Of a DNA stretch of 64,000 nucleotides, positions 15,191 through 52,688 are shown piece after piece. Location of the stretch: the NCBI GenBank assembly GCA_045534225.1, contig JAZSJJ010000001.1, positions 54,800 through 118,799 on the forward strand. Direction: 5' to 3'. The notes beneath the pieces are model-generated. The model saw only the letters and a list, made by a program, of their open reading frames with translations, ran no database searches and had not been told where the DNA came from. This stretch comes from Clostridia bacterium (GTDB taxonomy: Bacteria; Bacillota; Clostridia; TANB77; CAG-465). Positions within the stretch are counted from its first letter, which is position 1, and every line of letters begins with the position of its first letter. A program made the position numbers and the translations under genes.

Positions 15191-15460
15191 ATGAAAAAAG
15201 CTATCGTTGTCTCGCTCGCTGTAATCGGAGGAATTACTGTTGCTTGTACCGCATTTGTGGGAATCGCAAGTGCTGTACAAGCAGCAAGAGCAAAAAAGCG
15301 TTATGAAAGCATGACTCCCGAAGAACGTGAGGCTCATAACAAGAGGATGGATGGCGTATTGGCAGCCATTTTCGATGCTTATGGCTTTGATAAGGCTAAA
15401 ACAGAGGCTCCAGTGGAAGCTGAAACAGAATCTGCTTTGGCAGAAGAAGTAACGGCTTAA
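15191..15460 (+). CDS. Small membrane protein (N-terminal TM, charged Ala/Glu-rich tail); GC-elevated (about 45%)
   Basis: AGGAGA RBS. The -10 TGTTATAAT is flanked by a perfect inverted repeat CCGAGAA..TTCTCGG. A terminator hairpin follows. Confidence 0.5.
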   Translation: MKKAIVVSLAVIGGITVACTAFVGIASAVQAARAKKRYESMTPEEREAHNKRMDGVLAAIFDAYGFDKAKTEAPVEAETESALAEEVTA

Positions 15461-15470
15461 TGCAAATTAA

Positions 15471-15498
15471 AGGCACAGAAAATTCTGTGCCTTTTTCT
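15471..15498 (+). terminator. Intrinsic terminator
   Basis: aggcacagaaaattctgtgcct hairpin followed by TTTTT. Confidence 0.75.
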
Positions 15499-15799: not shown

Positions 15800-15965
15800 T
15801 CCACGCTCTTTTTCATGTCTATTAACAGGTTACATAAAAAACCTTGAAACCCTTGTAAATAGCGACTTTTTGAGGTGTATAAAATAACGCTAAAAACACT
15901 TGCAAAAGGTCGTATTTTGGTATATAATGATGTCGTGACAAATCGATTAAAATATGAGGTGTAAA

Positions 15966-18900
15966 ATGCAAGAATATTTATTTGAAATTGATAGCGAGGT
16001 CAAACGTAATTTTAAGTTTATAAAATCAACTTATGATTTACTAAACATGAATAATGAACTTAAAATACCTTCGCATTCAGCAGGTCAATGGTTACTAGAT
16101 AACTTATATATTGTAGAACAAGAATATAATAATGCTAGATTATCATTGGAACACGGAATAAGAGTTGGATTACCAACTGTTAAGCCGGCAGACGGAAAGG
16201 AAACACTAAGAGTAATGTTTATGGCAAATGAGATCGTAAACAGAAACAATGGTGTTGTAGATGACGGTATAGTTAGTAATTACATACGCGAATTCCAAAA
16301 ACATACATATGTCACTTTTGAAGAATTATCTGTTTTACCAATTATGCTAAGAATAGCAGTAATAAGATATATTAAAAGAATATGTGTAAACATTTCTAAC
16401 GCAGAAATGCAGAAATTGAAAGTAGAGAAGAGAATAAACAAATCTATCTCTAAAAATGCAGACAAGGTAACTACAAAAACACTTAAAGGTTTAGGTGGTA
16501 TGAAAGAAGAACTTACTATGGCAAATGGTGTTAAAACAAGCAACACTGCTTACATAGAGTATATGGCATACAAACTAAAAGACTTTGGTGCAGGTGGAGA
16601 AGAATACCTTGAAGAATTAAAAGAGGAAACAAACAAAGCGGGATTTACTATCGATGAAGCTATAGAGAAAGAACATGATGAAATAGCAAAAACAACAAGC
16701 TTAATTGCTAATGCTATTACATCAATGAAAACAATCTCAACTACTAACTGGGGAGATGTTATAGTTCACGTTAACAGAATAGACGAAATCCTAAAAGAAG
16801 ATTACACTAAAGAATATAAAAAGTGTGATCATAAAACAAAATCTAGATATAGAGCAACAGTTATTAAACTGGCTAAAAAATATAAAGTTTCTGAAATGTA
16901 TGTAGCTAAAAAAGCAGTAGAGTGTTCATTTAAATATGAAAAACACGTAGGTCATTTCTTAATAGGAGATGATAAAATACTTCTTATTAAGCTAATGAAA
17001 AAGAATCCTACAGGACTTTGGTTATACAACAATGTTGTTAAACCTCTTAAGGCATATATATACATACTATTAATACTTGGATTCGCAGCAACATTTACTA
17101 TAATAGTAGATAAGTTATTTATAGATAATTATTCTATAGGATTTAGAATAACGCTTAACATAATATTATTTGCGTTCGGTATGGAACTTGCAGATAAGTT
17201 GTATTCATACTTAATAGGAAAGTTTGTTCATCCAGAGCCACTTCCTAGATTTAACTTTGCTAAAACTATAGATGAAGAAACAAGTACAATAATCGCTATG
17301 CCAACAGTTATTAATTCAACTGAAAAGCTAGATAAGATGATTAAGAAGATGGAAACTACATATCTTGCAAATAGATCACAAAATATGTATTACATGCTTT
17401 TAGGTGACTGTACATCTACACAAAAAGAATATATTGACCTTGACGAAAAGGTTGTTAAATATGGTAAAAAATTAATTGATGACCTTAATGCAAAATATCC
17501 AGCAGAACCTAAATTATTCAACTTCTTATATAGAAAAAGAGTATATTCAGAATCTGAAGGATGCTATATGGGTTGGGAAAGAAAACGTGGTGCGTTAACA
17601 CAACTTAACCTATTACTTTTAGGAAAACTTTCTAAAGGACAAATAGCAAACTCAATGTATTTAGTACATAATGAAATACCTAAGGTTAAATACCTTATAA
17701 CAATAGACGAAGATACTGCATTATCTTTAAACTCTGCAAAAGAGCTTGTTGCGATTATTTCGCACCCATTAAATAAAGCAGTACTTGCTAAGAATAAAAA
17801 GATAGTTAAATCTGGTTACGGATTAATCCAACCAGCAGTTGGACTAGACATTGAAGCTGCAAACAGCAGTATATTCTCTAAAGTTTTCGGAGGATTTGGT
17901 GGTCTAGACATATATACAAATGCTATTTCAAATATGTATCAAGACATATTTAAAGAAGCTATATATACAGGTAAAGGTATATATGATATAGGACTATTCG
18001 AACAACTAATAGGAGATAAAGTTCCAGAGAACTTAATTCTAAGTCACGACCTATTAGAAGGAAGCTTTATGAGAACAGGTCTTGCATCTGACGTTGAAGT
18101 ACAAGATGGATTCCCATCAAACTTTATAGCATATATGAAGAGAAATCATAGATGGTATAGAGGAGATATGCAAATCATATCTTGGATATTTAGACCTAAG
18201 AGCGGACTAAACTTACTATCTCGTTTCAAAATATTTGATAACTTAAGAAGAGAAATGCTAGATGTATTCTCGTTATTGTTATTAATAGTATCTATGTTCA
18301 TAAAGGGTAATACATTCGTATATGCGTTTGTTGTTACATTCTGTGTAATGAACTTTGGATATCTTTTATCTACATTTGACCAAATAGTATTTGGTAGAAA
18401 TGCAGAGAGAAAACAAAAACAATATATTCCGGTTATATATGGATTAAGAGCAAACTTACTTAAAATGGTGTTTAATATTATAACGCTTCCATATAAAGCA
18501 TGGATAACAATTCACGCTTTCTGTACGTCAATATATAGAATGCTTGTTTCTAAAAAGAAACTTCTAGAATGGGCAACTGCAGAAACTATAGAAAAAGGCG
18601 CTAAAGAAAAAATGTCATATGTTTACAGAAACATGTGGCCAAACACAATATTTGGTTCTGTTATGTTACTATACGCATTATTACATGGTGTAACAACAGG
18701 TAAAGGTATATTTGTATTAATTATGGGTATATTTATGCTAATAGCTCCGTTTGCAGCATATATAATGAGTAAGAAAGTAATATTCGATGGCGGAAATAAA
18801 TTAGACAAGAAAGAAATAGATTTAGTTAAAGAAGTAGGAGAAAAGACTTGGAAATTCTTCGAACATACAATGACAGATCTTAATAATTACTTACCACCAG

Positions 18901-21500
18901 ATAACTACCAAGAAAATAGAAGACCAAAGATAGTAAATAGAACTTCATCAACAAATATTGGTTATGGTGTACTTGCAATAATAAACGCCTATGACCTTGG
19001 ATATATTCCAGTTGAAGAAGCGGTAAATAAACTATATAACACATTAAAAACAGTAGAAAAACTAGAAAAGTGGAATGGTCACTTATATAACTGGTATAAC
19101 ATTAAAACATTAGAGCCATTAAAGCCTAGATTTGTATCTACAGTAGACAGCGGTAACTTTATAGCATGTATATATGTAACAATATCATTACTTAAAAAGC
19201 TATCAGCTTCTAAAATAGTAATGGAAAAATTATCAGACAAGATAATAGAATTACAAAGAATTTGTAATGAATTAGTAGCAGGAGTGGACTTTACTAAATT
19301 ATATGTAAAATCTAAAAACATATTCTCAATAGGGTTTGATGTAGAGGCAAATAAATGTGTAGACAGTTATTACGATATGTTAATGTCTGAATCAAGATTA
19401 ACAAGCTTAATTGCTATTTCAACATCTCAAATAACTTCAAAACACTGGTTTGCGCTTGCAAGACAACTTGTTAAAGTTGGAAACCTAAAAGGTCTTATTT
19501 CATGGAGTGGTACATCGTTTGAATACTTTATGCCAAACCTATTTACTAAGACACACAAATATACATTGATAGACGAAGCATTAAGTTTTGCATTAAACAG
19601 CCAAATAGATTATGCTAAAACAGCTGGTGTGCCTTGGGGTGTATCTGAATCTGCATTTGCGGTACAAGATAACGAACAACATTACCAATATAAAGCATTT
19701 GGTATTCCATGGCTTGGACTTAAGAGAGGTTTAAATGATAATATGGTAATTTCACCTTATTCATCATTAATTTGCTTACCTTATGCTCCTAAAAAAGTTG
19801 TTAACAACATTAAGCACTTAAAGAAATATAATTCATATTCTCACTATGGTTTCTATGAAGCAATAGACTTCACAAAGAGACATATTGGAAGAGATAGAAA
19901 ATATGAAGTAGTAAGAACATATATGGCTCACCACCAAGGTATGGCTCTTACAGCAATAAATAACTTTATAAATAACGGAATAATACAAACAAGATTCCAC
20001 GAGAATCCAAACATAAATGCTTGTGATATTCTATTAAAAGAAAGAGTGCCGTTATCTGTGCCATTAAAAGAAAGCAAGAACTCAATAGACAACAAATTTG
20101 TAGAACCTGCTAAAGAAGCGTTTACAAGTGGTGTTGCATATGAAGATTTTGCTAAATTTAAGAACAGAACTACAGCTATGATTAATACTCATACTAACGG
20201 TAGACTTTCAACTATAATTAAAGACACTGGTGCAAACTTTATGTACTACAAGAACAATGCAATTACTAAGAACAGATTTGTTAAGGATGAAACTTTAGGA
20301 AATGTTGTAGTATTTACAGATAAAACAAGTGGTAAAGTTTGGTCATCAACATACCATCCATTCTATTCTGAGCCTGAAGAATATTCAGTATCTTACTCAT
20401 TATCTTCAAGTGACTTTAGAAGAAAGGATGGACCAATAGAAACAATAACTAAAATATTAGTAGCTCCTAAATTAGATATGGAAATACGTAAATATACGCT
20501 ATTTAATTCATCTAATGAAAGACGTGAAATACTAATAAATACAGAACTAGAACTTGCAATGGCAGACGAAAACGCAAACATAATACATCCTTCATTTAAT
20601 AATTTATTAATAGAAGAATATTATGATGAAAACTTAGAAGCGTTAGTTGCAAGAAAACGTCCTAGAGGAAACCCAGAAGACGATTTCTATGTATTTACTA
20701 AATTAGTAGGTATAGATTTAGCTTATGAAATAGAAACAGAAAAAACTAAGCTATTAAAGGATAATGCTATGCATGCATATGACGGCAAGGTAACCAAATA
20801 TCCATTATGGCCAGTAATGTCATATAGAGCAAGAATTCTTTTAGATCCTGGCGAATCACAAACATTCTATTACTTAACTGGTGCGGCAGATACTAAATAT
20901 AATGTATCTCACGCAATAGTAAATGCAGATAAAGAAACAATAGAAAAAGAAATTCTATTCTCATTACAAAAAGAAAATGTAAATGCTAAATATCAAAAAC
21001 TTGTTCCAAATAGAGCAGCTGCATATAATGATATACTTTCTAAGATACTATTTGAGCATGATAAAGATATGGATGTAAACAAATATTGGGATTCTAAATA
21101 TAGTCAAGCAATGTTATGGAGATTTGGTATTTCTGGAGATTTACCAATTATAACAGTTCCAATAGGAAGATTAGAAGATTCAGCGTTAATTACAGAAGTT
21201 GTAGAATTTATGGATTACGTTAAATCTAGAAAAGTTGACCTAGATATTATCGTTGTAATGGACGAAGAACTATATAGTGGAGAACCTATCAAAACGCATA
21301 TTGACAAAGTGTTAAGTAAAGTGGTATATATGACTTATACAAGAGGAAATATATATACAGTAAACGTAAATACAATGCCTGAAAATGAAAGAGGAATCTT
21401 TGATTTTGTAAGCAGATTAAAAATTGATGGCGTAGATATATTTATGCCAAAGAAAACAAAAGAAAAACCTATGAGTGAGGTGGATGTGAATGAACTATAA
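15966..21500 (+). CDS. Cyclic beta-1,2-glucan synthase-like protein, part 1: N-terminal TM region, a GT84 glycosyltransferase domain, a second TM cluster and an alpha/alpha cyclisation-type domain
   Basis: LLGDCTST (GT84 DxD region), multi-TM blocks and a RTSSTNIGYGVLAI..KWNGHLYNWYN region like the Cgs/NdvB middle domain. GAGGTG RBS before ATG 15966. A TTGCAA-17-TATAAT promoter lies upstream. Confidence 0.7.
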   Translation: MQEYLFEIDSEVKRNFKFIKSTYDLLNMNNELKIPSHSAGQWLLDNLYIVEQEYNNARLSLEHGIRVGLPTVKPADGKETLRVMFMANEIVNRNNGVVDDGIVSNYIREFQKHTYVTFEELSVLPIMLRIAVIRYIKRICVNISNAEMQKLKVEKRINKSISKNADKVTTKTLKGLGGMKEELTMANGVKTSNTAYIEYMAYKLKDFGAGGEEYLEELKEETNKAGFTIDEAIEKEHDEIAKTTSLIANAITSMKTISTTNWGDVIVHVNRIDEILKEDYTKEYKKCDHKTKSRYRATVIKLAKKYKVSEMYVAKKAVECSFKYEKHVGHFLIGDDKILLIKLMKKNPTGLWLYNNVVKPLKAYIYILLILGFAATFTIIVDKLFIDNYSIGFRITLNIILFAFGMELADKLYSYLIGKFVHPEPLPRFNFAKTIDEETSTIIAMPTVINSTEKLDKMIKKMETTYLANRSQNMYYMLLGDCTSTQKEYIDLDEKVVKYGKKLIDDLNAKYPAEPKLFNFLYRKRVYSESEGCYMGWERKRGALTQLNLLLLGKLSKGQIANSMYLVHNEIPKVKYLITIDEDTALSLNSAKELVAIISHPLNKAVLAKNKKIVKSGYGLIQPAVGLDIEAANSSIFSKVFGGFGGLDIYTNAISNMYQDIFKEAIYTGKGIYDIGLFEQLIGDKVPENLILSHDLLEGSFMRTGLASDVEVQDGFPSNFIAYMKRNHRWYRGDMQIISWIFRPKSGLNLLSRFKIFDNLRREMLDVFSLLLLIVSMFIKGNTFVYAFVVTFCVMNFGYLLSTFDQIVFGRNAERKQKQYIPVIYGLRANLLKMVFNIITLPYKAWITIHAFCTSIYRMLVSKKKLLEWATAETIEKGAKEKMSYVYRNMWPNTIFGSVMLLYALLHGVTTGKGIFVLIMGIFMLIAPFAAYIMSKKVIFDGGNKLDKKEIDLVKEVGEKTWKFFEHTMTDLNNYLPPDNYQENRRPKIVNRTSSTNIGYGVLAIINAYDLGYIPVEEAVNKLYNTLKTVEKLEKWNGHLYNWYNIKTLEPLKPRFVSTVDSGNFIACIYVTISLLKKLSASKIVMEKLSDKIIELQRICNELVAGVDFTKLYVKSKNIFSIGFDVEANKCVDSYYDMLMSESRLTSLIAISTSQITSKHWFALARQLVKVGNLKGLISWSGTSFEYFMPNLFTKTHKYTLIDEALSFALNSQIDYAKTAGVPWGVSESAFAVQDNEQHYQYKAFGIPWLGLKRGLNDNMVISPYSSLICLPYAPKKVVNNIKHLKKYNSYSHYGFYEAIDFTKRHIGRDRKYEVVRTYMAHHQGMALTAINNFINNGIIQTRFHENPNINACDILLKERVPLSVPLKESKNSIDNKFVEPAKEAFTSGVAYEDFAKFKNRTTAMINTHTNGRLSTIIKDTGANFMYYKNNAITKNRFVKDETLGNVVVFTDKTSGKVWSSTYHPFYSEPEEYSVSYSLSSSDFRRKDGPIETITKILVAPKLDMEIRKYTLFNSSNERREILINTELELAMADENANIIHPSFNNLLIEEYYDENLEALVARKRPRGNPEDDFYVFTKLVGIDLAYEIETEKTKLLKDNAMHAYDGKVTKYPLWPVMSYRARILLDPGESQTFYYLTGAADTKYNVSHAIVNADKETIEKEILFSLQKENVNAKYQKLVPNRAAAYNDILSKILFEHDKDMDVNKYWDSKYSQAMLWRFGISGDLPIITVPIGRLEDSALITEVVEFMDYVKSRKVDLDIIVVMDEELYSGEPIKTHIDKVLSKVVYMTYTRGNIYTVNVNTMPENERGIFDFVSRLKIDGVDIFMPKKTKEKPMSEVDVNEL

Positions 21501-23646
21501 AGCATATAATGGATATGGTGGTTTTAATATAACAGGAGACGAGTATGAGGTGTTAAACACCCATACTCCTGTCCCTTGGTGTAATGTATTAACAAACGAG
21601 AGATTCGGTACCTTAGTATCTACATATGGAACGGTTTATTCATTCTATAAAAATGCTGGTGAATTTAAATTAACTCACTGGTGTAATGACTGGGCAGATT
21701 TTGTACCAGGTGAAAAATTTAGAGGTATATATGATACAGGGTATAATCTAACTTTTGGTTTTGGTTATACTAAAGTAAGAGAAGAACACGGCAATATTGA
21801 AAGAAATATGGATATATTTGTTCCAATAGATGATGATGTAAAAGTACATTATATAGAAATTAAGAATAATAGAGCTATAGACAAAGAAGTAACTATAGAA
21901 TACACTCCAGATATGGTTATGGGTGTTGCTAAAGAGAAATCTAGTCCATACGTATTATGCAAATTAGAAGATGATGCAATGTACTTTAAGAATCCATATA
22001 ACGAGTTCTTTGGTGGTGTTACTACATATGTCAAAGGTGTTCTGTTAGAAGGCACAGAAGGCGCTGTGGAATATGACGAAGAAACACATACGGTTAGAGT
22101 AAGATGTATTGCAAAGAAGGATGAAGTAAGAAGCATAGCGATTCTATTTGGCGCTACTGATGAAGGAATAGAAAAGGCTAAGCATGTACTTGAAAAATAT
22201 TCTAGCGAGGCCAATATATTAGCTGAATACGAAAAAACAAAAGCGTACTGGAGAAGTAAAGTTGTACGTAATTTCAAAACTGGAAATGAGTACGTAGATA
22301 TCTTAGCTAATGGGTGGTTAATGTATCAAACATTAGCATCTAGACTATTTGCTAGAACTGGACTTTACCAAGCTGGTGGAGCTTTTGGGTATAGAGATCA
22401 ATTACAAGATACATTAGCATTAATTTCATCTTGGCCAGAAAGAACAAGAGCGCAAATAATAAAACACGCACACAAACAATTTGAAAAAGGTGATGTTTTG
22501 CACTGGTGGCACGAACATAATTCAAGAGGAATTAGAACTCGCTTTAGCGATGACTATCTATGGCTACCATATGTTCTTAGTGAATATATATTTAAGACTA
22601 AAGATATGACTGTATTAAATGAGACAGCTTCATTTTTAGAAGATAAACCTTTAGGCGAACACAAGGAACTTTATGATTACTTTGCGCCTACTGGAGTCTA
22701 TGCTACTGTTTATGAACATGCGGTAAGAGCTATAAAATACGGCTTGTCTAGAAAAGGTAGACATGGGTTGTTAGAAATAGGCGATGGAGATTGGAATGAC
22801 GGTTTCAGCAATATAAACGGTGAATCTGTATGGCTAACATTCTTTATGATAGACATATTAGATAGATTTATTAAACTAGCAGATATGATGAAAAACGAAG
22901 AAGATTCTAAATATTTTGCAAACGAAAGACATATTCTAAAACATACAGTTATAGATTATGCATGGACGGGAGAATACTTTGCAAGGGCATTCTATCCAGA
23001 TGGAACTCCAATAGGAACACCAGATAGTCCAGATTGCAAAATAGACTTAATATCTCAAGCTTGGGCGGCTATAGCTCTTAAAGAATATATAGACTGCAAA
23101 GAAGAGATAGATTTAAGCTTAGAGAGTGCAGAAAAGTATCTAGTAGATAGAGAACATGGAGTAATAAAACTTCTTTATCCACCATTTGATAGTCCTAAGA
23201 ATAACCCAGGGTACATTAAAGCATATGTTCCTGGTGTTAGAGAAAATGGAGGACAATATACACACGCGGCAATATGGCTTGCAAAAGCATATTTTGAAAT
23301 AAATAAGCCAGAAAAAGCGTTAGATATATTAAGTATATTAAACCCAATAAATCATAGCAACGATAAAGAAAGAGCTGAGATTTATCAAGTAGAACCTTAT
23401 GTTGTTGCTGCTGATGTTTATGCAAATCCAGATCATGTTGGACGTGGCGGATGGACTTGGTATACAGGTTCTTCAGGTTGGATGTATAAAGTAATAGAAG
23501 ACAATTTTAATCAAGTAGGAACAGAAACTACTGAACTTAAGGAAGAAAAGAAACCAGTTAAAAGAACTACTAGAAAGAAAAAAGTAGAACCGGTTGCAGA
23601 AGAAGTAAAAGAAGAAACTACTACAGAAGTAGAAAATGTAGAATAA
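21490..23646 (+). CDS. GH94 (cellobiose phosphorylase-like) domain protein, equivalent to the C-terminal part of cyclic beta-1,2-glucan synthase. The ATG overlaps the upstream stop.
   Basis: GAFGYRDQLQD and GDGDWNDG GH94 catalytic-region motifs. The start ATGAACTATAA overlaps the TAA of the preceding ORF. Lys/Glu-rich C-terminal tail. Confidence 0.75.
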   Translation: MNYKAYNGYGGFNITGDEYEVLNTHTPVPWCNVLTNERFGTLVSTYGTVYSFYKNAGEFKLTHWCNDWADFVPGEKFRGIYDTGYNLTFGFGYTKVREEHGNIERNMDIFVPIDDDVKVHYIEIKNNRAIDKEVTIEYTPDMVMGVAKEKSSPYVLCKLEDDAMYFKNPYNEFFGGVTTYVKGVLLEGTEGAVEYDEETHTVRVRCIAKKDEVRSIAILFGATDEGIEKAKHVLEKYSSEANILAEYEKTKAYWRSKVVRNFKTGNEYVDILANGWLMYQTLASRLFARTGLYQAGGAFGYRDQLQDTLALISSWPERTRAQIIKHAHKQFEKGDVLHWWHEHNSRGIRTRFSDDYLWLPYVLSEYIFKTKDMTVLNETASFLEDKPLGEHKELYDYFAPTGVYATVYEHAVRAIKYGLSRKGRHGLLEIGDGDWNDGFSNINGESVWLTFFMIDILDRFIKLADMMKNEEDSKYFANERHILKHTVIDYAWTGEYFARAFYPDGTPIGTPDSPDCKIDLISQAWAAIALKEYIDCKEEIDLSLESAEKYLVDREHGVIKLLYPPFDSPKNNPGYIKAYVPGVRENGGQYTHAAIWLAKAYFEINKPEKALDILSILNPINHSNDKERAEIYQVEPYVVAADVYANPDHVGRGGWTWYTGSSGWMYKVIEDNFNQVGTETTELKEEKKPVKRTTRKKKVEPVAEEVKEETTTEVENVE

Positions 23647-23652: not shown

Positions 23653-23683
23653 TAAGAGTGCATAGAAATATGTGCTCTTTTTA
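23653..23683 (+). terminator. Terminator hairpin, copy 1 of an identical 31-bp direct repeat
   Basis: taagagtgcatagaaatatgtgctcttttta; it is repeated exactly at 24913-24943. Confidence 0.7.
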
Positions 23684-23747
23684 TGTTTTTATTGACTAAA
23701 GGCAAAATATAAAATATACTATGTATATATGTGCAAAGGAGAAAAAA

Positions 23748-24902
23748 GTGAACAAGAAACAAGGAATATCATTAATAGTATTAGTAATAACTATAATAGT
23801 TATGATAATATTAGCGTCTGTAGTTGTTATTTCAATAAGCGATACAGGAATAATAAACAGAGCGAATCAAGCAGTAGACGAATCAAACGAGAAGCAGGTA
23901 CAAGATTTAGCTGCGTTGGTTTGGGCTGATTCTTTTATGACTGGAAAAAGGGGTGCTGAGTTAGAAGAAGATGTCTTAGACAAACTAAAAGACTATGTAG
24001 ATAAATATGAGATAATAGTTACAGATACAGGAGCTAGTGTAGTTAACAAAGATTCATTATTAAATACAACACTAGGACACTTAATTACAAGTGCCAAAGA
24101 CTATGGAAAAACTATAAATTATGAAGCGAACGGAGTAACAGATTGGAAAGTATTTTATCATACAGAAAACTATGTATATTTAATAGCCACTGAAGCATTA
24201 GCCATGGATCAACTGCCAATACAAAAGATGGCTGCAGAACATAAAATTCCGTTAGTAACAAAGCTTGTAACTAAACCGAATGGAACAACAAAAGTAATTG
24301 GACATATAAATCTTCAAAGCAGTGCTACCCACAGAGATGTGATAGCGGCAACAATACAACGCCCAGAATTATGGATGGCCAATTTTGGGGATTATTCAAA
24401 AAATTATGGCAAGCTAATATCTTGTTATTTAGATGAAACAATATGGGATTTATATAAGAATACAACATCAAGATACAGTGAGTACATAGAAGGAGCTATA
24501 GGCACTCCCACTGTCGAAATGTTTGTAGCAAGTTGGAATGCTAAAAGAGAAGCAACTGGAGATTTTGAAACGTATAACAAGAAACTTGCATTAGTATCTG
24601 ATGGTAGTAAAGGATACTATGTAAATGATATAACTTCTGGTGAGCCTGCTACAAGTAATACGTCTTACCAATATATCACGCCAACCGATACTTTATATAC
24701 ATGGGATTATTCAAGCCACAATTCGGATATATATTTAGCGGGAATGTCTACCTTCGATAACGGTTCGCAAATGATATTACAAATGGGGTATGGTATTAGA
24801 TATTTCGGAAATAATGGTGCAACAGGTGGATTAAGACCTGTAATTTGCTTAAGAGCAGATGTGCCAGCAGGAACAGGAATAAAAACAGATTTTATAATAT
24901 AA
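23748..24902 (+). CDS. Pilin-like N-terminal module protein, paralogue 2 of 3. The C-terminal domain differs from paralogue 1 and is related to paralogue 3.
   Basis: AAAGGAG RBS then GTG 23748 (NKKQGISLIVLVITIIVMIILA). The N-terminal 65 aa are conserved with 163 and 59496. C-terminal PVICLRA..AGTG..TDF motif shared with paralogue 3. Confidence 0.55.
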   Translation: MNKKQGISLIVLVITIIVMIILASVVVISISDTGIINRANQAVDESNEKQVQDLAALVWADSFMTGKRGAELEEDVLDKLKDYVDKYEIIVTDTGASVVNKDSLLNTTLGHLITSAKDYGKTINYEANGVTDWKVFYHTENYVYLIATEALAMDQLPIQKMAAEHKIPLVTKLVTKPNGTTKVIGHINLQSSATHRDVIAATIQRPELWMANFGDYSKNYGKLISCYLDETIWDLYKNTTSRYSEYIEGAIGTPTVEMFVASWNAKREATGDFETYNKKLALVSDGSKGYYVNDITSGEPATSNTSYQYITPTDTLYTWDYSSHNSDIYLAGMSTFDNGSQMILQMGYGIRYFGNNGATGGLRPVICLRADVPAGTGIKTDFII

Positions 24903-31538: not shown

Positions 31539-31636
31539 TTATACTTATATAATGTATGATATATATAATAAAATATAAAATAATAAAGAGGTGCTTAAAA
31601 ATATAAGCATCTCTAACTATATATATAATATGTATA

Positions 31637-32596
31637 TTATTTTAATTTATTTAATGGATTATTATCTATAGCAGATTTAACTTCATCACTATCTATATGA
31701 GTATATATTTGAGTTGTAGCTATTGTTTCATGTCCTAATACTTGTTGTAATGTTCTAATATCTACACCAGCGTGTTTATGCATTAATGTAGCTGCAGTGT
31801 GTCTAAGCTTATGTGGTGTATATTTTTTGGGATCAAGCCCAGCACTTATTATATATTGTTTAACCATTATTTCTACCATTCTAGGAGATATACGTTTATA
31901 CTTTTTACTTATAAATAATGCGCGTCTATCGTCGCCTTTAACCTTATCAACCGGTCTAACCTTAAGATAAGCTTCAATAGCGTCTAAACAGGCCTTATTT
32001 AGGTGCACAGAGCGTTCTTTGTTACCTTTACCAATAACGGACAATGTATCGCCTTTAATATGTTCTAAATTGATTCCTACAAGCTCAGAAAGACGCAAAC
32101 CACAGTTTAGAAAGACTGTAAGGATAGCATAATCTCTTTCTTTGAACTCGCCTTGGACAGAGTGGAGTAGGGCAAGTGACTCATCTAGATTTAAATATTT
32201 TGGTAATCTTTTTTCTAATTTTGGTGCTTCAAGCCCAGAAGTTGGATTTCTTTCAATTTTTTTAGAAATATCACATAAATATTTATAAAATGATTTAATT
32301 GATGAAATTTTACGAGCTCTTGAAATTGCTTTAGTATTTTTATCATATAAATAATTATATATATCTGAAGTTTCTACAGATTTAAAAAAATTTAAATCTA
32401 AATCTGAAATATCAATTTCTTTATAATTTTCAATTTTAATATTATATTTATCACGTTTAATAAATTGAAAAATATCTCTAAGATCATAATAATATTCATT
32501 AACAGTATTTTTAGATCTGTTTTTAGTAATGATTAGATAATTCTTAAGGTAATCTTGCAAAATTACCGGCAAATCGTCATAAGACGGATGTTTCAT
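31637..32596 (-). CDS. Tyrosine site-specific recombinase (XerC/XerD-like integrase)
   Basis: C-terminal catalytic motifs R..HxxR..Y (RHTAATLM..LGHETIATTQIYTHI) and an N-terminal SAM-like core-binding domain. GGAGGT RBS before ATG 32596. Confidence 0.8.
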   Translation of the reverse strand: MKHPSYDDLPVILQDYLKNYLIITKNRSKNTVNEYYYDLRDIFQFIKRDKYNIKIENYKEIDISDLDLNFFKSVETSDIYNYLYDKNTKAISRARKISSIKSFYKYLCDISKKIERNPTSGLEAPKLEKRLPKYLNLDESLALLHSVQGEFKERDYAILTVFLNCGLRLSELVGINLEHIKGDTLSVIGKGNKERSVHLNKACLDAIEAYLKVRPVDKVKGDDRRALFISKKYKRISPRMVEIMVKQYIISAGLDPKKYTPHKLRHTAATLMHKHAGVDIRTLQQVLGHETIATTQIYTHIDSDEVKSAIDNNPLNKLK

Positions 32597-35547: not shown

Positions 35548-35661
35548 ATATCCTTCTCCTCCTTCATATGTTTGGTTTATTAACCTTTAATATTGTAACA
35601 CAAATTTACTTATTTGTGTAGTCTTTTTTACTCCAAAATGCGTATTTTAAGCACTTTTTTG

Positions 35662-36702
35662 TTAAAGTGTGTCATTTATTATACCATCAAATAGCTCTAT
35701 ATACTTTTCTACTGTACATTTAGAAGAGTTTTTAGCACCTTCTTTGATGTTTTCTTCTGACAATACTTTTAATAATTCTCTATTGTTATATAATTCTCTT
35801 ATTTTTTCTTTTAATTCTTCTTTATTTCTTTCTTTTAGAATGAATTCTTGACCTTTTTTACCTAAAACTTCATAAGCCAAGCCTACATCAGTTGTTATTA
35901 CTGGTACGCCGCAGCTCATTGATTCTAGAAGCGGTCTTGGAGTTCCTTCTATTAACGATACACATACATATATATCTATATGACTATAGTATTCTTGCAT
36001 TTCTACTGCATTTCTATATTTATCATTTACATCAGCGTAGAAAGGTACAATGTTATATCCTTCCGCCTTAAGCTCTTCTATAGCTGGTTTTAATATTGTA
36101 TGTAGACCTTTATAGTCTATATCGTCTTCAGATTTCTTGTTCCATTTACTATTTCCAACCCAACCAATTACTAATGGTCTATTTTCTACATTTTCACTAT
36201 CAAATCTTTCAAGTTTTGCTGGTACAAATAGATCTGTGTCTATTGTATCTGGTATTTCTGCCCAAGGTAATGGACAATTTGGAACAGCTGCATATATATC
36301 ATATAACTTTTTAGAACATACTAAATATGCTTTAGAATACAGTCTATATAGCTTTGTATAGTCTATTTCAGGATCATTTATTGCTAAATGATCATATACG
36401 CATGTAGTAATTTTTCTTACCATAGATTTTAAGTATTCATCATAGTTATATCCTTTAAGAGCCACTCTTTCTTTGAAACTTTCATCTTCAAATTGAAGTA
36501 AAAGTTTTCTTGCAAGGAAATGTATTACATCATATTCCTTTGTAGCTTCTAAAATGTCAAATAAGTCTTTATTAAAGTCTGTTACACAATAAAATACGTC
36601 TATATCATATTTATCGCTTAATTCCTTTTTTAATAATTGTGCAATTATATCAAAAGACCAATTAGGTATATCTGCAATAATTGCAATTTTATTTTTGCTC
36701 AT
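35662..36702 (-). CDS. Glycosyltransferase family 4 (GT-B)
   Basis: C-terminal EGTPRPLLESMSCGVPVITTDVG motif. AGGAGG RBS before ATG 36702. Overlaps the upstream gene by about 14 nt. Confidence 0.7.
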   Translation of the reverse strand: MSKNKIAIIADIPNWSFDIIAQLLKKELSDKYDIDVFYCVTDFNKDLFDILEATKEYDVIHFLARKLLLQFEDESFKERVALKGYNYDEYLKSMVRKITTCVYDHLAINDPEIDYTKLYRLYSKAYLVCSKKLYDIYAAVPNCPLPWAEIPDTIDTDLFVPAKLERFDSENVENRPLVIGWVGNSKWNKKSEDDIDYKGLHTILKPAIEELKAEGYNIVPFYADVNDKYRNAVEMQEYYSHIDIYVCVSLIEGTPRPLLESMSCGVPVITTDVGLAYEVLGKKGQEFILKERNKEELKEKIRELYNNRELLKVLSEENIKEGAKNSSKCTVEKYIELFDGIINDTL

Positions 36703-38833
36703 TATTCTTTTTAACCTCCTCTTCAAAGGATCTGTTTAATGATTCTAGCATACTGTTTAATAATAAGTATCTTTCTGCGAATTCTATATTGTTACAATAG
36801 TTCTTATCTGTAGTTGAACCTGTTTTAATAAGTTTTGTTAGGTACTTATCCATATCACTTATCATTTTCTCTATAGAGAATAATGTAACAATTTTGTTTC
36901 TACATAATTCTTTATAATCTACTTTATCTTTATTTACTAGTACTTTTTCAATTGCAGCTCTATATTCTTCTATTTCATTTTCAGAATAATCGAACTCAAA
37001 TTGTTGTTCTGGTACTTGATATGGTCTAATTAAGTAACCACAATCTGTTTGTATAAGCTCTTTTTGGCCGCCTATATCACAAGATACTACAGGTACACCC
37101 ATAGACATAGATTCATATGTAGTAAGTGTTAAACCTTCTCTTAAAGAACATACAAGCGTAACCTTAGCTACTTTATAGAAACGTCTAACATCTTCTTGCA
37201 TACCATAAAGGTCGACATATTCTTCTAGATGCTCTTCTGCAATTTTCTTTTTCATATCTTCAAACGCAGGACCATCTCCAACAAATGCTAACCTTACATT
37301 AGGTCTGGTCTTAATAAGTTGTTTTAACACTTCAATTGCAAATAATGGACGCTTGTAATGAACCATACGACCTACAAATAGTATAACTTCTTTACCTTTG
37401 TATTTCTTTTTAAGTTCATCTTCGCCTTCATATTTCTTATTTAAATCATAGAAATCCGGATCAGTACCTATATATACAGGTTTAATGTTCTTAATATTTC
37501 TATTCATAATATTGTACATTATATGTCTTAAATGTTTTGTACAAGTATATGTATTATCTAAGTACATTGCAACCGAGTTGGAATCTTTAGGGAATCCACC
37601 ATTTCTTAACGTCCAGTTTTCTGCGTGTATATAGTCTACGAATGGTATTTCTTTGAAATGGAATTTTAACCATGGTAATACGTAGTATCCGTAGAAACTA
37701 TTTGAAAGAACAACCGCATTTATCTTTCTAGATTTGATTATATGATAAATAAAACTTGCCCAATCTTTTTCTTTTAAGAACGATGTTAAATCGAAATATT
37801 CGTCAACATATTGTTCTACTTTTTGCCTTAAAACATAATCACATTTCTTAGTGGTGATTACACTAATTTCATATCCTTTTGCTCTTAGTCCTTTAATTAG
37901 GTTTAATGCAAATATATCTGCACCACCTACAACAAACCAAGGGACTATGAATAAAAGTCTTTTCTTCTCAGCTAATGGAAAGATGTCTTTTTTAGTTAAT
38001 TCTATCTTTTGTGGTATATCTTTATAGTCTATTTTATAGATTTTATCGAATTCTATAATGTTAGTATCTAATTTTATTTCAGACTTCATTTTATCTATGT
38101 ATTCATCAGAAATCTTAGATTTTTCTTCACTATTTTCTACCATTACATATTTCTCATCAGCTAGTTTTCTATGCCAATATCCATAGTAGTCCATTTTAAT
38201 TGGAACATACTTTTTACTTAAGAAATATAGCCACATATACCAGTCTTCATGTACTTCTGTTGGAAGCGACATAAAGCTATCTAATTCCAAGAATTTATCT
38301 TTTCTAATAAAAGCACATCTAGATATAATGTTCTTTTTAGCCATTTCATAAATAGCTAGTTTCTTGTTAAATAGACCTTGTTTATCGTGGAAATTTACCA
38401 TTCTAGAATATGCCCAAACACCTTCTGGGTTTGTTAGCATAGTAAAATAACCACACTCTAACATTGTTTTGTCTATTAAATCCGATTCGCAAAGAAGTAA
38501 TAACAAATCACTCTTTGCTTCTTTTGCAGCGATGTATTGAGCTTTTGCAACACTATCGTCTTCTTCTAATTTTACAATTCTAATTCTTTTATCTATCTTA
38601 GTTAATTCTTTTAACGTATCATCAATTTCATCTGTTGCTATCAACCATTCCCAATGAGGGAAAGTTTGGTTTAATAATGAGTTATATGTTTGTTTAATAT
38701 AACCCTGGTTTTCATAGTGTGTTATAACACTTACATATATATTATCTACATATGTACTTAATCTAGACTCTTTGTTTTTGCCTGGTTCTAATGTAAAGTC
38801 GAAGTAGTCTAATTCTGTCTTTGGATTATTCAT
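36689..38833 (-). CDS. Fused bifunctional glycosyltransferase (N-terminal GT2 plus C-terminal GT4)
   Basis: N-terminal GT2 signature (YVSVITHYENQGYIKQTYNSLLNQTF..ATDE). C-terminal GT4 (REGLTLTTYESMSMGVPVVSCDIGG). AGGAGGT RBS before ATG 38833. Confidence 0.7.
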   Translation of the reverse strand: MNNPKTELDYFDFTLEPGKNKESRLSTYVDNIYVSVITHYENQGYIKQTYNSLLNQTFPHWEWLIATDEIDDTLKELTKIDKRIRIVKLEEDDSVAKAQYIAAKEAKSDLLLLLCESDLIDKTMLECGYFTMLTNPEGVWAYSRMVNFHDKQGLFNKKLAIYEMAKKNIISRCAFIRKDKFLELDSFMSLPTEVHEDWYMWLYFLSKKYVPIKMDYYGYWHRKLADEKYVMVENSEEKSKISDEYIDKMKSEIKLDTNIIEFDKIYKIDYKDIPQKIELTKKDIFPLAEKKRLLFIVPWFVVGGADIFALNLIKGLRAKGYEISVITTKKCDYVLRQKVEQYVDEYFDLTSFLKEKDWASFIYHIIKSRKINAVVLSNSFYGYYVLPWLKFHFKEIPFVDYIHAENWTLRNGGFPKDSNSVAMYLDNTYTCTKHLRHIMYNIMNRNIKNIKPVYIGTDPDFYDLNKKYEGEDELKKKYKGKEVILFVGRMVHYKRPLFAIEVLKQLIKTRPNVRLAFVGDGPAFEDMKKKIAEEHLEEYVDLYGMQEDVRRFYKVAKVTLVCSLREGLTLTTYESMSMGVPVVSCDIGGQKELIQTDCGYLIRPYQVPEQQFEFDYSENEIEEYRAAIEKVLVNKDKVDYKELCRNKIVTLFSIEKMISDMDKYLTKLIKTGSTTDKNYCNNIEFAERYLLLNSMLESLNRSFEEEVKKNNEQK

Positions 38834-39030
38834 TTTACCTCCTAAAATTTTTAAGGCTACATTTCCATTATACCATTTTTGATATAATAAGTAAAGCTTT
38901 AAGAGCCCTGAAACCCTTGCTATAACTAGCACCTAGTACTAATTATAACAAAGAAACGCTAGTCCCCACTTGAGGTTTAGCGTTTCTGTTTTTACTAAAA
39001 TTTCTTTGAATTTTTTAATATTTTCTTTAA

Positions 39031-43834: not shown

Positions 43835-44529
43835 TCTTCCTCCGCTATTTTTACTATCTTATTTAATCTATGATATACACCAGATTTACTTATTTCATAC
43901 GAGCATTTAGCTGCAAGTTCTTCTAGAGATGCTGCAGGATCATCTTCTCTAAGTTCAGCTATTTCTCTTAGTTTAGCATTTAGAGTATCAAATCTGCCGT
44001 CTGCTTTTAATTTGTTTATTGCTTCTATATGCTTGTATGAAGCTTTGGCTATTTTATTTAAATTAGCTGTCTCACAGTTTACTGTACGATTTATATCATT
44101 TTTAATGCTTTTGTTTATACGAACATCCTCAAACTTAAAGACTGCTTTATTCGCTTCAAATATTCTAAGCATAGTAGCAATTTGTTCCGATTCTTTTATA
44201 TATACCACATAATCTTGATTTCTTTTAATTGTCTTAGGTAAAAGGCCAAATTCTTCCATTATTTTCATAACATAGTTTGCATGTGTTTTACCTTTTAGGG
44301 ATACTTCAAAATGGTAATCTGATTCTGGGTTCACTAAACAACCACTACCTAAAAACACTCCTTTTAGGAATGCTTTTTTGCAGCAGGATTTAGTTATTAG
44401 CTTCTTTAATTCTGTTACAGTTATATCTTTAGATTCCGTAATTAACTCACCATATCTTAAAGGTATAACACAACATTTTTTGTTCTTAGTTTCTAGTATT
44501 TCGTTTTTTATTTCTTCTGAAAACGACAT
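43831..44529 (-). CDS. whiA: WhiA-family DNA-binding protein, a short form (232 aa) lacking the first LAGLIDADG-like domain
   Basis: MSFSEEIKNEI N-terminus, KKAFLKGVFLGSG..NPESDYHFEV and a C-terminal HTH (VNCETANLNK..ISKSGVYHRL). Canonical WhiA is about 315 aa. Confidence 0.6.
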   Translation of the reverse strand: MSFSEEIKNEILETKNKKCCVIPLRYGELITESKDITVTELKKLITKSCCKKAFLKGVFLGSGCLVNPESDYHFEVSLKGKTHANYVMKIMEEFGLLPKTIKRNQDYVVYIKESEQIATMLRIFEANKAVFKFEDVRINKSIKNDINRTVNCETANLNKIAKASYKHIEAINKLKADGRFDTLNAKLREIAELREDDPAASLEELAAKCSYEISKSGVYHRLNKIVKIAEEE

Positions 44530-45380
44530 TTTACCACCCTATCTTTTGAATTAATATCTTTAATTATCTTAATATCTGTATATTCTTTATGTTCCTTAAT
44601 GATGTTTACAACATCTTCACCCTGAAGGTGTCCTATTTCTACAAGAATACTTCCACCATCATTTAAGAAGTTTTTAGCTTCGTTATATATAACTCTATAT
44701 GGTTCTAAACCGTCTTTTCCGCCTCTTAATGCTAGTTCTGGTTCTTGTTTTACAAAGTCTGAAATTTCATTCATTTCATCATCTGTTAAGTACGGCGGAT
44801 TTGACGTTATTATATCATACTTGTTTGTAGTTTTGTATAGTGATTCAAACATATCTGATTTAATTACTTCGCATTTGTCTTTTACATCATTTATATCTAT
44901 ATTTTTAGTAGCTACTCTAATCGCTACGTCCGAAATATCTATTAGCGTTGCACTTTCAATATTTGAATTCTTCATTACGGATATTGCAACACATCCTGTG
45001 CCCGTACAAAGGTCTAGAAGGCTTAAATAACCGTTTTCTTTTATACAGTTAATACTTTCTTCTATTAATGTTTCAGTGTCTTGTCTTGGTATTAAAACAC
45101 CGTCTTCTATATAGTATTCCTCGTTATATATATATGCTTTATGTGTTAGATACTGTGGTGGCATTTTATCCACAGCTATTTTTTCCATCATTCGATCTAA
45201 TACTTGTATGTCTTCATCTGTTATTTCTACCATATTAAGCTTTATATCTGATAATTTTACACATTTTATCTCAGCAAGTAATAAAACAACAAGTTCCCTA
45301 GGGGTACTTGTTATATCTAGGGAATCTATATTGTACTTATTTATATATTCTTCTGTTAGTTTATTTAATATATTACTCAT
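44508..45380 (-). CDS. prmC: Release factor glutamine N5-methyltransferase
   Basis: SAM-binding DLCTGTGC and the NPPY catalytic motif. Confidence 0.85.
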   Translation of the reverse strand: MSNILNKLTEEYINKYNIDSLDITSTPRELVVLLLAEIKCVKLSDIKLNMVEITDEDIQVLDRMMEKIAVDKMPPQYLTHKAYIYNEEYYIEDGVLIPRQDTETLIEESINCIKENGYLSLLDLCTGTGCVAISVMKNSNIESATLIDISDVAIRVATKNIDINDVKDKCEVIKSDMFESLYKTTNKYDIITSNPPYLTDDEMNEISDFVKQEPELALRGGKDGLEPYRVIYNEAKNFLNDGGSILVEIGHLQGEDVVNIIKEHKEYTDIKIIKDINSKDRVVKCRFQKK

Positions 45381-46173
45381 TATTTCTTTCCTTTATATTA
45401 TCTAAAACTTTCTTTATTTCTATATCTAGGTTACTTCCTTCTTCGTAATTTGCAGGTACCGTTAAATTAACACGTCCGTCCGCAAACAACTTAGTAGAAA
45501 GTCTATCACTATCTTTATGTACAGCCACTGCTACTCCGCCGTTATCCTTTACAAGTTTCATGCATGGTACATCTGTAAGGCCATCGCCGAAGTATACCAT
45601 ATTGTTAAATGGAATTGCTTTCTTATCTTCTTCCATTTTATCGTTTATTGCTTCATCATACACCTCAAATATGCCTTTGTTTATTCTATATAAAAATTGT
45701 GTCTTGTTAGTATAGTTTACGCATACTGCAGGCCATTTTGCGATATCGTCTATGTTGTATAAAAAGCTACAAGCATATATTCTTTCAAACTTATCTTTTA
45801 TACTTGTTCCTTCAATCATTTCCTTTATACCAGATGATACTATATAATGGTGTATATTAAGGCCTAATGCAGCACCATAGTTGTTTATTCTATCAAACCA
45901 GTCTTCTACACCCGGATAAAAAGTAACGCTTTTTCCATACTCTACAAACGCACTTTTCTTAACAGATATATTCTTTTCTTCTGCTTTCTTTAGCATTAAA
46001 TACATATATGCTAGAACGCCTTCCATATTGTTTTTAATTTTAAGTTCATTTGCTTCTTCCCAAAACTCTTTAGATGTCATTTTAAGAGCTGGTATAAAGT
46101 TATATTCTTGTATATTGCCATGAGCTAATGTTCCGTCAAAGTCATATATAAATGCTACATTATTGTTTTTCAT
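45373..46173 (-). CDS. HAD-superfamily hydrolase
   Basis: Motif I FIYDFDGTL and a later GDGLTD (motif IV). Confidence 0.6.
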   Translation of the reverse strand: MKNNNVAFIYDFDGTLAHGNIQEYNFIPALKMTSKEFWEEANELKIKNNMEGVLAYMYLMLKKAEEKNISVKKSAFVEYGKSVTFYPGVEDWFDRINNYGAALGLNIHHYIVSSGIKEMIEGTSIKDKFERIYACSFLYNIDDIAKWPAVCVNYTNKTQFLYRINKGIFEVYDEAINDKMEEDKKAIPFNNMVYFGDGLTDVPCMKLVKDNGGVAVAVHKDSDRLSTKLFADGRVNLTVPANYEEGSNLDIEIKKVLDNIKERNNE

Positions 46174-46228
46174 ATATCCTCCTTATTTTGAGTAAAATAA
46201 AAGTGCTACATTATGCAGCACCGTTATA

Positions 46229-46432
46229 TTACTTATTTGTTCCGTATTTTTCCATGAATTTTGCGGCTCTACCTTTAGAAGAAACTGCTTGTTTTAATCC
46301 AGTAAAGAATGGATGACATGCGCTACAAGTATCAGTCTTCATATCTTTCTTAGTTGAACCTACTTCAATTACGTTACCGCAAGCGCAAGTAATTGTTGTT
46401 TTTTCATATTTTGGTTGTATTTCGCTTTTCAT
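46229..46432 (-). CDS. rpmE: 50S ribosomal protein L31
   Basis: Zn-ribbon form, with CxC..C..C (CACGNV..CSACHPF) and a KFMEKYG tail. Confidence 0.9.
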   Translation of the reverse strand: MKSEIQPKYEKTTITCACGNVIEVGSTKKDMKTDTCSACHPFFTGLKQAVSSKGRAAKFMEKYGTNK

Positions 46433-46545
46433 TATTTGTCCCTCCTTATTAATAAGATTCGCTTTTACCTAATATATTCTAACATAAGTTTATTTAAATT
46501 ACAACTTTTTTATGATATTTATGCAAATATTTTTTTATTAAGAGA

Positions 46546-46935
46546 TTACTTAATCCAAGCTCCTAACATCCACTTATTAAATAGCTTAAATTCACCGCTT
46601 ACTATATTGTTGTTTGATATAGCTTCTGTTGAGTTTTGATATTCCTCAAATTTTTTGTCATACTTATATGAAACTGTATAGCCAATTCCGGAATATATAA
46701 CAGTGTCATCTGTATATGTCTCTCCAGTTATTTTGCCAGGTAATACACCTAAATTTTTATTAAATCTAACAAGCTCCATGATTATAAAAAGAATAAATGC
46801 AACTAATAATATAACTGCTATTTTTATTGTTGCTTTTAAGAATCTTTTTGTTTCCTTTTTTATTGCCTCTTTTTTAGCTATTTTCATGTCTCTTTCTATT
46901 GCTTTTCTTGTTCTTACGTTCATTTTACCTTCCAT
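46546..46935 (-). CDS. Hypothetical membrane-anchored protein
   Basis: Basic N-terminus, a single TM helix and then about 70 extracytoplasmic aa; unknown. Confidence 0.35.
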   Translation of the reverse strand: MEGKMNVRTRKAIERDMKIAKKEAIKKETKRFLKATIKIAVILLVAFILFIIMELVRFNKNLGVLPGKITGETYTDDTVIYSGIGYTVSYKYDKKFEEYQNSTEAISNNNIVSGEFKLFNKWMLGAWIK

Positions 46936-46997
46936 ATATTATCCCTCGATATGTGTATTATATCACATTAAGAATATATTGCAAGAAATCTAATAGA

Positions 46998-47660: not shown

Positions 47661-47684
47661 TTTTATCATTTAATTATTAAATTT

Positions 47685-48446: not shown

Positions 48447-48447
48447 T

Positions 48448-52676: not shown

Positions 52677-52688
52677 TTTATATCCCTT

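Follow-up and report, generated by a model that had tools for sequence, protein, structure and literature searches.

A synthase of cyclic beta-1,2-glucans in uncultured Clostridia that is probably naturally split into two subunits

The synthases (Cgs) that make cyclic beta-1,2-glucans are usually single polypeptides of ~2,800 residues. In a 64,000-nucleotide (nt) stretch of DNA from a Clostridia bacterium (contig JAZSJJ010000001.1, positions 54,800 to 118,799 of the forward strand; hereafter the window, in whose own numbering positions are given), a Cgs-like locus is instead carried by two long open reading frames (ORFs) of the + strand, at 15954/15966..21500 (ORF1) and 21490..23646 (ORF2). 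Is this one gene that has been broken, by error or by decay, or an enzyme that is naturally made in two parts? A first-pass annotation of the DNA had offered both answers, either a true variant with two subunits or a linker frameshift; the gene layout is conserved with varied junctions and no conserved residue is missing at the junction, which bears out the former answer and refutes the latter. We regard a naturally split Cgs, the two products of which form one two-subunit machine with a shared GH94 pocket, as the best explanation of the locus as a whole, and as a likely one.

The relationship of both ORFs to Cgs is not in doubt. ORF1 matches the Agrobacterium tumefaciens enzyme (structure 8rf9) with E=1.7e-251 and ORF2 with E=6.8e-128, so the resemblance is far beyond chance. 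ORF1 is best read from the ATG at 15966, because a Shine-Dalgarno-like GAGGTG (15956..15961, +) precedes it and because a 98%-identical database protein is 1844 aa long; ORF1 is thus a protein of 1844 aa (15966..21500, +), rather than the 1845 aa first given. ORF2 (21490..23646, +) has the 718 aa previously assigned to it, and its ATG is indeed embedded in a string that overlaps the ORF1 stop codon: the 11-nt overlap ATGAACTATAA (21490..21500, +), read directly, holds the ORF2 ATG at 21490 and the ORF1 TAA at 21498-21500. A TGA directly 5' of this ATG closes the ORF2 frame, and 21490 is therefore the earliest possible ORF2 start. A second Shine-Dalgarno-like GAGGTG (21477..21482, +) lies within the ORF1 coding sequence, 7 nt 5' of the ATG. 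The pair therefore has a start that overlaps a stop, a ribosome-binding motif inside the upstream gene and, in a terminator scan, no terminator-like site called at the ORF1/ORF2 junction; an Rfam search of the window returned one tRNA only and no match at the junction. Translational coupling of ORF1 and ORF2 through the stop/start overlap would be a plausible reading of this arrangement, and relatives with 21-37-nt spacers suggest that it is not obligatory. All of the motifs quoted in the first-pass annotation were located (LLGDCTST, RTSSTNIGYGVLAI, WNGHLYNWYN, GAFGYRDQLQD, GDGDWNDG, NGYGGFNITGDEYEV, PVPWCNVLTNE and the Lys/Glu-rich tail).

The layout of orthologous loci bears most directly on the question. 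Homologues were drawn from independent NCBI, ENA, JGI and Logan assemblies, and the figures for each ORF refer to its best 120 clusters. For ORF2 (57-100% identity) all of these are 615-722 aa long, and for ORF1 (49-98% identity) they are ~1800-1886 aa, save two that are partial. An exhaustive search with ORF2 of 1.84 billion 50%-cluster representatives gave a consistent picture: at this level of clustering the ORF2 clade is a single 686-aa representative (894 bits), and the next matches, at no more than 547 bits, are for the most part fused (2500-2990 aa), along with contig fragments and four standalone proteins of 669-769 aa (P0124, P0133, P0214 and P0250). The two genes are adjacent in 34 metagenome loci and two other loci. 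The metagenome scan yielded 35 split-clade loci, and the check for one versus two ORFs gave two in all 34 that could be assessed; the upstream ORF is complete in 23 (1825-1886 codons), runs to a contig edge in nine, and in two lies on low-coverage contigs with extra breaks. Among the matches listed in the genome-contig scan, the sole split-clade locus (L005) is at a contig edge. A lookup of the exact sequence of the window's ORF2 (P0001) gave no contig.

The junctions themselves vary across the metagenome loci: the genes are 4-37 nt apart or overlap by 1-17 nt, all three relative frames occur, and a Shine-Dalgarno-like motif stands 5' of ORF2 at almost every related locus. Two relatives, at 66% and 58% identity (loci L001-L004), carry this gene pair with spacers of 17 and 21 nt and a Shine-Dalgarno motif in each, one of the loci (L003) has two stops in succession (TAA TAG) at the junction, and an independent metagenome contig (L085) has a 42-nt junction identical to that of the window. 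Both halves are under purifying selection. Because the two-gene layout is conserved, the junctions vary and no residues have been lost (see below), a sequencing frameshift, a pseudogene and conserved recoding are excluded as explanations. Judged from these comparisons, the split is natural, and it is kept throughout a monophyletic group of uncultured Clostridia that come from samples of gut and rumen.

Where, then, does the cut fall? In A. tumefaciens Cgs the C-terminal half consists of GP1 (from residue 1536), a Rossmann-fold-like domain (RFL, 1847-2012), and then GP2 and GP3 (PMC10901819). With the native numbering of that protein calibrated on D2393, the ORF1 alignment extends to at least residue 1946, inside RFL, and ORF2 Met1 aligns at about residue 2042, so that the cut corresponds to residues ~2030-2042. 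The two halves together give near full coverage of full-length Cgs, and an alignment of split pairs with fused relatives has no conserved residue missing at the junction; the linker that holds the break comprises ~20-45 poorly conserved residues, bounded on one side by F.FVSR..I, the last RFL element, and on the other by AFN.YGGF..GDEY, a motif of GP2. The N terminus of ORF2 had been likened to that of cellobiose phosphorylase, and its residues 9-64 do align with residues 3-58 of that enzyme. It had also been proposed that GT84 and cyclization domains are followed by a GH94 part beginning exactly at the GH94 boundary. Those domains were found and ORF2 begins as described, but the scheme is incomplete, since ORF1 also holds GP1 and RFL, and the cut is at the RFL-GP2 linker, inside the phosphorylase module. 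With GP1 and RFL retained in ORF1, the GH94-type module itself is split and not cut at its edge; in the alignments and structural models, the break lies in the variable RFL-GP2 linker and divides this module.

A neighbor-joining tree of the GP2-GP3 region (87 sequences, bootstrap of 100) recovers the split clade as monophyletic in 100/100 replicates. Its nearest neighbors in the tree are an orphan (L151) and fused Cgs of Clostridium sp. CAG:780 (L063) and of two Clostridia metagenome-assembled genomes (MAGs; L067 and L073). Among more distant relatives (24-40% identity), the gene is a single ORF at no fewer than 63 loci from genomes and 20 from metagenomes, counted where the sequence upstream was long enough, including those of Clostridium ganghwense, C. 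niameyense, Paenibacillus and Xanthomonas. As the split clade is monophyletic and its nearest relatives are fused, the fission is derived and old, and most simply a single event. The lineage also extends further than the main clade. A Logan contig from SRR24319152 (L152, 1-2614; P0250) is split and has only 39% identity in ORF2 and 25% in RFL; its ORF1 counterpart stops right past the last RFL element and is followed by a 28-nt spacer with a Shine-Dalgarno motif, and its ORF2 is without the C-terminal beta domain discussed below. Monophyly is also 100/100 with this locus included, and by these features it belongs to this split lineage as a deep branch, sister to the main clade. Several of the related contigs are labelled human gut metagenome, and a more distant fused relative (L048) is from a sheep-rumen MAG.

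ORF1 codes for the membrane-embedded part, with the order N-terminal domain, transmembrane segments, GT84, transmembrane segments, GH189, GP1, RFL and a disordered tail. Pfam matches are to Glyco_trans_2_3, Glycoamylase (PF10091) and the GH94 supersandwich, and NCBIfam gives MdoH only, below threshold. Residues 19-1075 align with Cgs 46-1095, covering the N-terminal domain, the transmembrane segments and the GT84 stretch. The GT84 domain (17253..18245, +; 211 bits in the 8rf0 alignment, and Pfam Glyco_trans_2_3) has D581/D583 (in IDEDT) and D695 (in SHD) in the places of A. tumefaciens D624/D626/D739. As the first-pass annotation had it, ORF1 has transmembrane segments, with Kyte-Doolittle peaks on both sides of GT84 (17034..18785, +; strong peaks at about residues 363-381, 767-801 and 915-933); the weaker peaks were picked by eye, and a count of six transmembrane helices is not rigorously fixed. 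The GH189-type cyclization (CY) domain (18798..20090, +) was placed by alignment to 8wy1 (E=1.9e-127), a structure of the Thermoanaerobacter italicus domain (TiCGS-Cy), and to 8rf0. ORF1 E1142, E1186, E1228 and H1322/H1323 correspond to TiCGS E1356, E1400, E1442 and H1536/H1537, of which E1442 is the nucleophile and E1356 the acid/base (PMC10834661), and the A. tumefaciens CY residues S1101/D1104 are kept within a conserved VSTVDSGN motif. Every catalytic residue checked in GT84, GH189 and GH94 is intact across ORF1 and ORF2.

We also observed that the CY domain of ORF1 (residues ~1064-1139; window 19134-19380) is without the ~120-160-aa four-helix insertion of the A. tumefaciens and T. italicus enzymes. 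The distance from VDSGN to YDxLxSE is 71-90 residues without the insertion versus ~200-290 in most Cgs. The insertion is absent from several fused Clostridia Cgs as well (L051, L063, L067, L073 and L131); we therefore rejected its absence as a trait specific to the split, and its loss, shared with the nearest fused relatives, is older than the split.

In the C-terminal part of ORF1, GP1 is the first GH94-type beta-supersandwich (20181..20882, +; PF06165, E=6.4e-31), is a beta-sandwich in the AlphaFold2 model and is homologous to Ndom1 of the GH94 enzyme LpSOGP. RFL (21135..21452, +), four strands with flanking helices by the secondary structure of the model, is the last folded element of ORF1 and has a conserved LWxFGISGDxPI motif. 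The remnant of the RFL-GP2 linker follows as a disordered tail (21459..21497, +; predicted local distance difference test [pLDDT] ~32). Mean identity within the clade is 50-51% for GP1 and RFL, in a range of 50-70% for the domains, versus 27% for the tail. The invariant GP1 residues are densest in a helix carrying HPxF, a motif also present in A. tumefaciens. The model of ORF1 residues 1385-1844 (predicted TM score [pTM] 0.81) shows a beta-sandwich that a helical linker joins to an alpha/beta unit of four strands, the final 13 residues being disordered, and superposes on Cgs over its whole length (Foldseek TM score 0.82).

ORF2 supplies the remainder of the module as a putative soluble GH94 subunit, composed of GP2 (residues 1-223), a helical linker (227-258), GP3 (~267-672) and a charged tail. 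Pfam finds the GH94 catalytic domain, PF17167 (324.9 bits; cutoff 27), and the PF06165 supersandwich (89.6 bits), NCBIfam gives no match to ORF2, and a Kyte-Doolittle scan of it finds no hydrophobic segment of transmembrane type. In the AlphaFold2 model (pTM 0.80) a helical linker connects a beta-sandwich to an (alpha/alpha)6 barrel, and disorder sets in from residue 678; Foldseek matches it best to Cgs (TM score 0.80), then to cellobiose phosphorylases (0.74-0.75) and LpSOGP (0.66). The catalytic motifs (22393..22800, +), placed by the 8rf0 alignment, include R302/D303 in YRDQLQD and D437 in GDGDWND; D303 is A. tumefaciens D2393 and D437 the catalytic acid D2528. The DWND Asp, RDQLQD and GGQYTHAA are present in ORF2 and invariant across the clade in alignments with 8rf0 and cellobiose phosphorylases. 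Phosphorolysis of beta-glucosides with inversion is the predicted activity, as expected of GH94 membership.

A peculiarity of ORF2 is its C terminus. The ~80-aa beta domain that usually follows the GH94 barrel is absent from every split-clade ORF2, which ends 0-11 residues past the barrel or bears a 26-46-aa charged tail; the corresponding ~80 residues are kept in fused Cgs and in L049, L151 and L153. In the window the place of the lost domain is taken by a charged tail of 43 aa that is predicted to be disordered (K8 R2 E12; 23515..23643, +; pLDDT ~30). This is the Lys/Glu-rich tail that had been remarked upon as unusual; it is present, but limited to the window's subclade, and it stands at the position in which other Cgs have the beta domain. 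We rejected it as a conserved functional element, since it occurs in one subclade and just its composition is conserved. The lowest-confidence internal segments of the ORF2 model (residues 26-29, 292-299, 432-441, 562-588 and 633-659; nt ~21565-23466) were also seen to coincide with its most invariant motifs (TPxPWCN, GGAxGYRDQLQD, GDGDWND, PGYIKAYVPGxRENGGQYTHA and VEPYV..GRGGWxWYTG). The low confidence of these active-site segments may come from the alignment, shallow at 18 sequences, or from loops that become ordered only with a partner domain or ligand.

How could the two products work? Ndom1 of LpSOGP occupies the place that the partner subunit's N-domain takes in dimeric GH94 enzymes (PMC5309861), and in Cgs, GP1-3 are the LpSOGP subdomains, with a glucan-binding track that leads from RFL over GP2 into the GP3 pocket (PMC10901819). 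Given this domain layout, pocket and track in a split enzyme would span the subunit interface. Because the genes are adjacent, GP1 and RFL are constrained, and the domains are equivalent to those of LpSOGP and Cgs, we infer a two-subunit enzyme. ORF2 would be translated from its own Shine-Dalgarno motif embedded in the ORF1 3' end, and the two proteins would reassemble non-covalently into a Cgs-like machine in which the GH94 pocket (GP1 against GP3) and the glucan track (RFL to GP2 to GP3) straddle the ORF1:ORF2 interface. ORF2 would trim the growing chain, and so control its length, and would also serve as a scaffold. The expected product, from UDP-glucose, is cyclic beta-1,2-glucan, as the intact catalytic residues of the three modules predict. 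In A. tumefaciens, function is lost when Cgs is truncated at residue 1846 and kept in the catalytic mutant D2528A (PMC10901819). A further proposal is more tentative, and we would put it somewhat short of probable: the fission may have restored a true inter-subunit GH94 site, with a membrane-bound GP1 and a dissociable soluble GP2-GP3, pocket and track being formed only when the two are docked. Subunit association would then set the length control and scaffolding of cyclic-glucan synthesis, and the polybasic tail of the window's subclade might keep ORF2 near the membrane.

Several observations weigh against a single two-subunit enzyme or against parts of the case for it. ORF2 resembles the homodimeric cellobiose phosphorylases and could complete its pocket by homodimerizing, and it lacks the C-terminal beta domain. 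The conserved GP1 helix was equated with alpha1/alpha2 of LpSOGP by inference, with no superposition behind it, and the neighbor-joining tree is a simple distance tree. The candidate promoter upstream of ORF1, TTGCAA-17-TATAAT (15900..15928, +), comes from a consensus scan in which promoter-like matches are no commoner here than in shuffled sequence. Finally, the orphan L151 (764-3073; P0124), a 769-aa GP2-GP3 protein that has the C-terminal beta domain and is the nearest non-split neighbor by distance, has no Cgs ORF1-like gene in its 10.5-kb contig, and such a GP2-GP3 module can thus live without an adjoining ORF1.

The main alternative is this: ORF1 would be a complete synthase and cyclase, and ORF2 a separate soluble beta-1,2-oligoglucan phosphorylase, likely a homodimer as cellobiose phosphorylase is, that is merely cotranscribed with it and, for example, recycles or trims released glucans. 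It is favored by the full Ndom and catalytic layout that ORF2 shares with the dimeric GH94 enzymes, by the orphan homologue, by the dispensability of GP catalysis in A. tumefaciens (PMC10901819), and by the ability of TiCGS-Cy to cyclize linear glucans by itself (PMC10834661). However, adjacency of the genes is strict at all split-clade loci examined, and their junctions are tight or overlapping; GP1 and RFL are constrained in ORF1 despite having no known role without GP2-GP3; and ORF2 has its best structure and sequence match in the GP region of Cgs, not in free phosphorylases. Moreover, C-terminal truncation kills function in A. tumefaciens, and the beta domain that ORF2 lacks is kept by free GH94 enzymes and by L151. 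We consider two uncoupled enzymes unlikely, although worth keeping in mind.

Much less credible is the idea that a programmed frameshift or stop readthrough at the overlap remakes one fused Cgs. In its favor are the shortness of the overlap and the +1 frame of ORF2 with respect to ORF1, but GATGTGAATGAACTATAA contains no slippery heptamer, nearly every ORF2 has its own Shine-Dalgarno motif and ATG, and L003 has its double stop; since the frame and length of the junction vary so widely among relatives, no single recoding mechanism is conserved, and we reject recoding as very improbable. The last possibility, that a fused cgs was broken by a 1-nt linker indel through a sequencing or assembly frameshift or a recent pseudogenization, might appeal to the different frames and 11-nt overlap of the ORFs, to an A5 run just upstream (21463-21467) and to other Cgs loci that are seemingly broken by error (L081, 1922-10023, in three pieces; L153, 1823-10271, with a 47-nt overlap), but it has a negligible chance against the split-sized best 120 clusters of either ORF in independent assemblies, the 34 of 34 split loci with their differing spacers, overlaps and frames, the recurrent Shine-Dalgarno-like motif, the identical junction of L085, the retention of all conserved residues and purifying selection on both halves.

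The loci that do look like frameshift errors or pseudogenes are broken at other sites and are unlike the clean split clade: besides L081 and L153, the latter (P0214) probably a frameshift, they include two low-coverage contigs with short upstream frames (L087 and L088). A different case is a Gammaproteobacteria MAG (L049, 4683-12406; JABCZS010000001.1) with ORFs of 1767 aa and 807 aa, an ATGA overlap, the same RFL-GP2 boundary and a deleted linker, which groups in the tree with fused gammaproteobacterial Cgs; an independent fission or an assembly error is possible.

The operon lies in an ordinary chromosomal setting of ~30% GC, with RNase J, GluRS, IleRS and a class-V aminotransferase upstream, and a pilin-like ORF, tig, clpP and clpX downstream; the tig-clpP-clpX synteny is common to relatives. 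A terminator-like hairpin with a T-run (23654..23679, +) lies just 3' of ORF2, and such sites number 11 in the window versus 3.0 expected in shuffles. An internal ORF2 promoter is not claimed, as the promoter-like matches in ORF1 (20874-20903 and 21076-21104) are no commoner than in shuffles. Between ORF2 and tig lies a 393-aa ORF (23721-24902, +) with a prepilin-like hydrophobic N terminus (KKQGISLIVLVITIIVMIILA) and no Pfam match; the syntenic L001 and L003 are without it, and there ORF2 is followed by tig or by a NUDIX gene ahead of tig. An 89-aa ORF (15191-15460, +) with an N-terminal hydrophobic segment and no Pfam match is located between the gene for the aminotransferase and the operon, and a strong bidirectional terminator-like hairpin (15469-15494) follows it. 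At ~31600-32000 the GC and AT skews change sign, gene orientation turns from + to - (convergent) and cumulative GC skew peaks, which looks like a replication terminus or strand-bias boundary. Surface-polysaccharide genes on the - strand (~35600-38900 and ~44000-63600), among them a GT2/GT4 fusion, several GT4s, an O-antigen-ligase-like membrane protein and a Wzx-like flippase, form a separate set that has no relation to the Cgs operon.

Genes are commonly split at domain linkers, and a split Cgs is therefore not conceptually surprising. The role of the Cgs GH94 region is still debated, and it is in Proteobacteria, as host-interaction factors, that cyclic beta-1,2-glucans are best known. In A. 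tumefaciens, GH94 catalysis is dispensable and the domain itself is required (PMC10901819). A natural split would offer a ready way to separate the GH94 region genetically and biochemically, a natural experiment on the mechanism of Cgs, and it marks a site at which Cgs tolerates a cut, which may be useful for engineering and for piecewise expression of a difficult protein. If docking of the two products proves true, it would make this a natural two-component Cgs, in contigs that include several labelled human gut metagenome. The locus and its relatives indicate that an uncultured Clostridia lineage recovered from samples of human gut and rumen has Cgs-type enzymes. Database labels of the halves are generic ('hypothetical', 'glucoamylase family protein', 'glycosyl transferase family 36'), and for annotation such pairs would be halves of one enzyme and not pseudogenes.

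In its descent, and predictably in its mode of action, the locus is a member of the Cgs/ChvB/NdvB family. It shares with A. tumefaciens Cgs/ChvB (8RF0, 8RF9 and 8RFE; PMC10901819) the order N-terminal domain, transmembrane segments, GT84, transmembrane segments, CY, GP1, RFL, GP2 and GP3, as well as all of the mutationally defined catalytic residues (D624/D626/D739, S1101/D1104 and D2393/D2528). It differs in having two polypeptides, of 1844 and 718 aa (2562 aa in total versus ~2820-2830), where Cgs is otherwise recognized as a single chain of 2500-3000 aa, and in lacking the ~120-aa CY four-helix insertion and the ~80-aa C-terminal beta domain. No exporter of the ChvA/NdvA/Cgt ABC type was found beside the operon or among the 28 window ORFs scanned, and no description of a split Cgs was found in the literature searched, an absence of evidence and no more. 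Among solved structures, TiCGS-Cy (8WY1; PMC10834661), the founder of GH189, is the closest relative of the middle domain of ORF1, and its catalytic residues are conserved; that domain was excised from a larger CGS and, in the crystallized chain, has ~160 residues between its conserved halves, whereas ORF1 has ~13. The nearest fused neighbors are the short Clostridia Cgs (L063, L067 and L073), which are likewise without the CY insertion but consist of one ORF that is open for 1901-1939 codons upstream of GP2, still possess the C-terminal beta domain and have only ~38-39% identity in the ORF2 region.

Among free GH94 enzymes, LpSOGP/LiSOGP (5H3Z; PMC5309861) has the order Ndom1, linker, Ndom2 and catalytic domain, which equals GP1-(RFL)-GP2-GP3; it is a soluble monomer of one chain with no synthase, whereas in the present locus ORF1 carries the counterpart of Ndom1 and ORF2 the remainder. 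The homodimeric cellobiose and chitobiose phosphorylases (3QDE, 2CQS and 1V7V) share their protomer architecture with ORF2 but have ~22% identity to it, act on beta-1,4 disaccharides, keep the C-terminal beta domain and have no link to a synthase. Their pocket is formed between subunits, an arrangement that the split would re-create.

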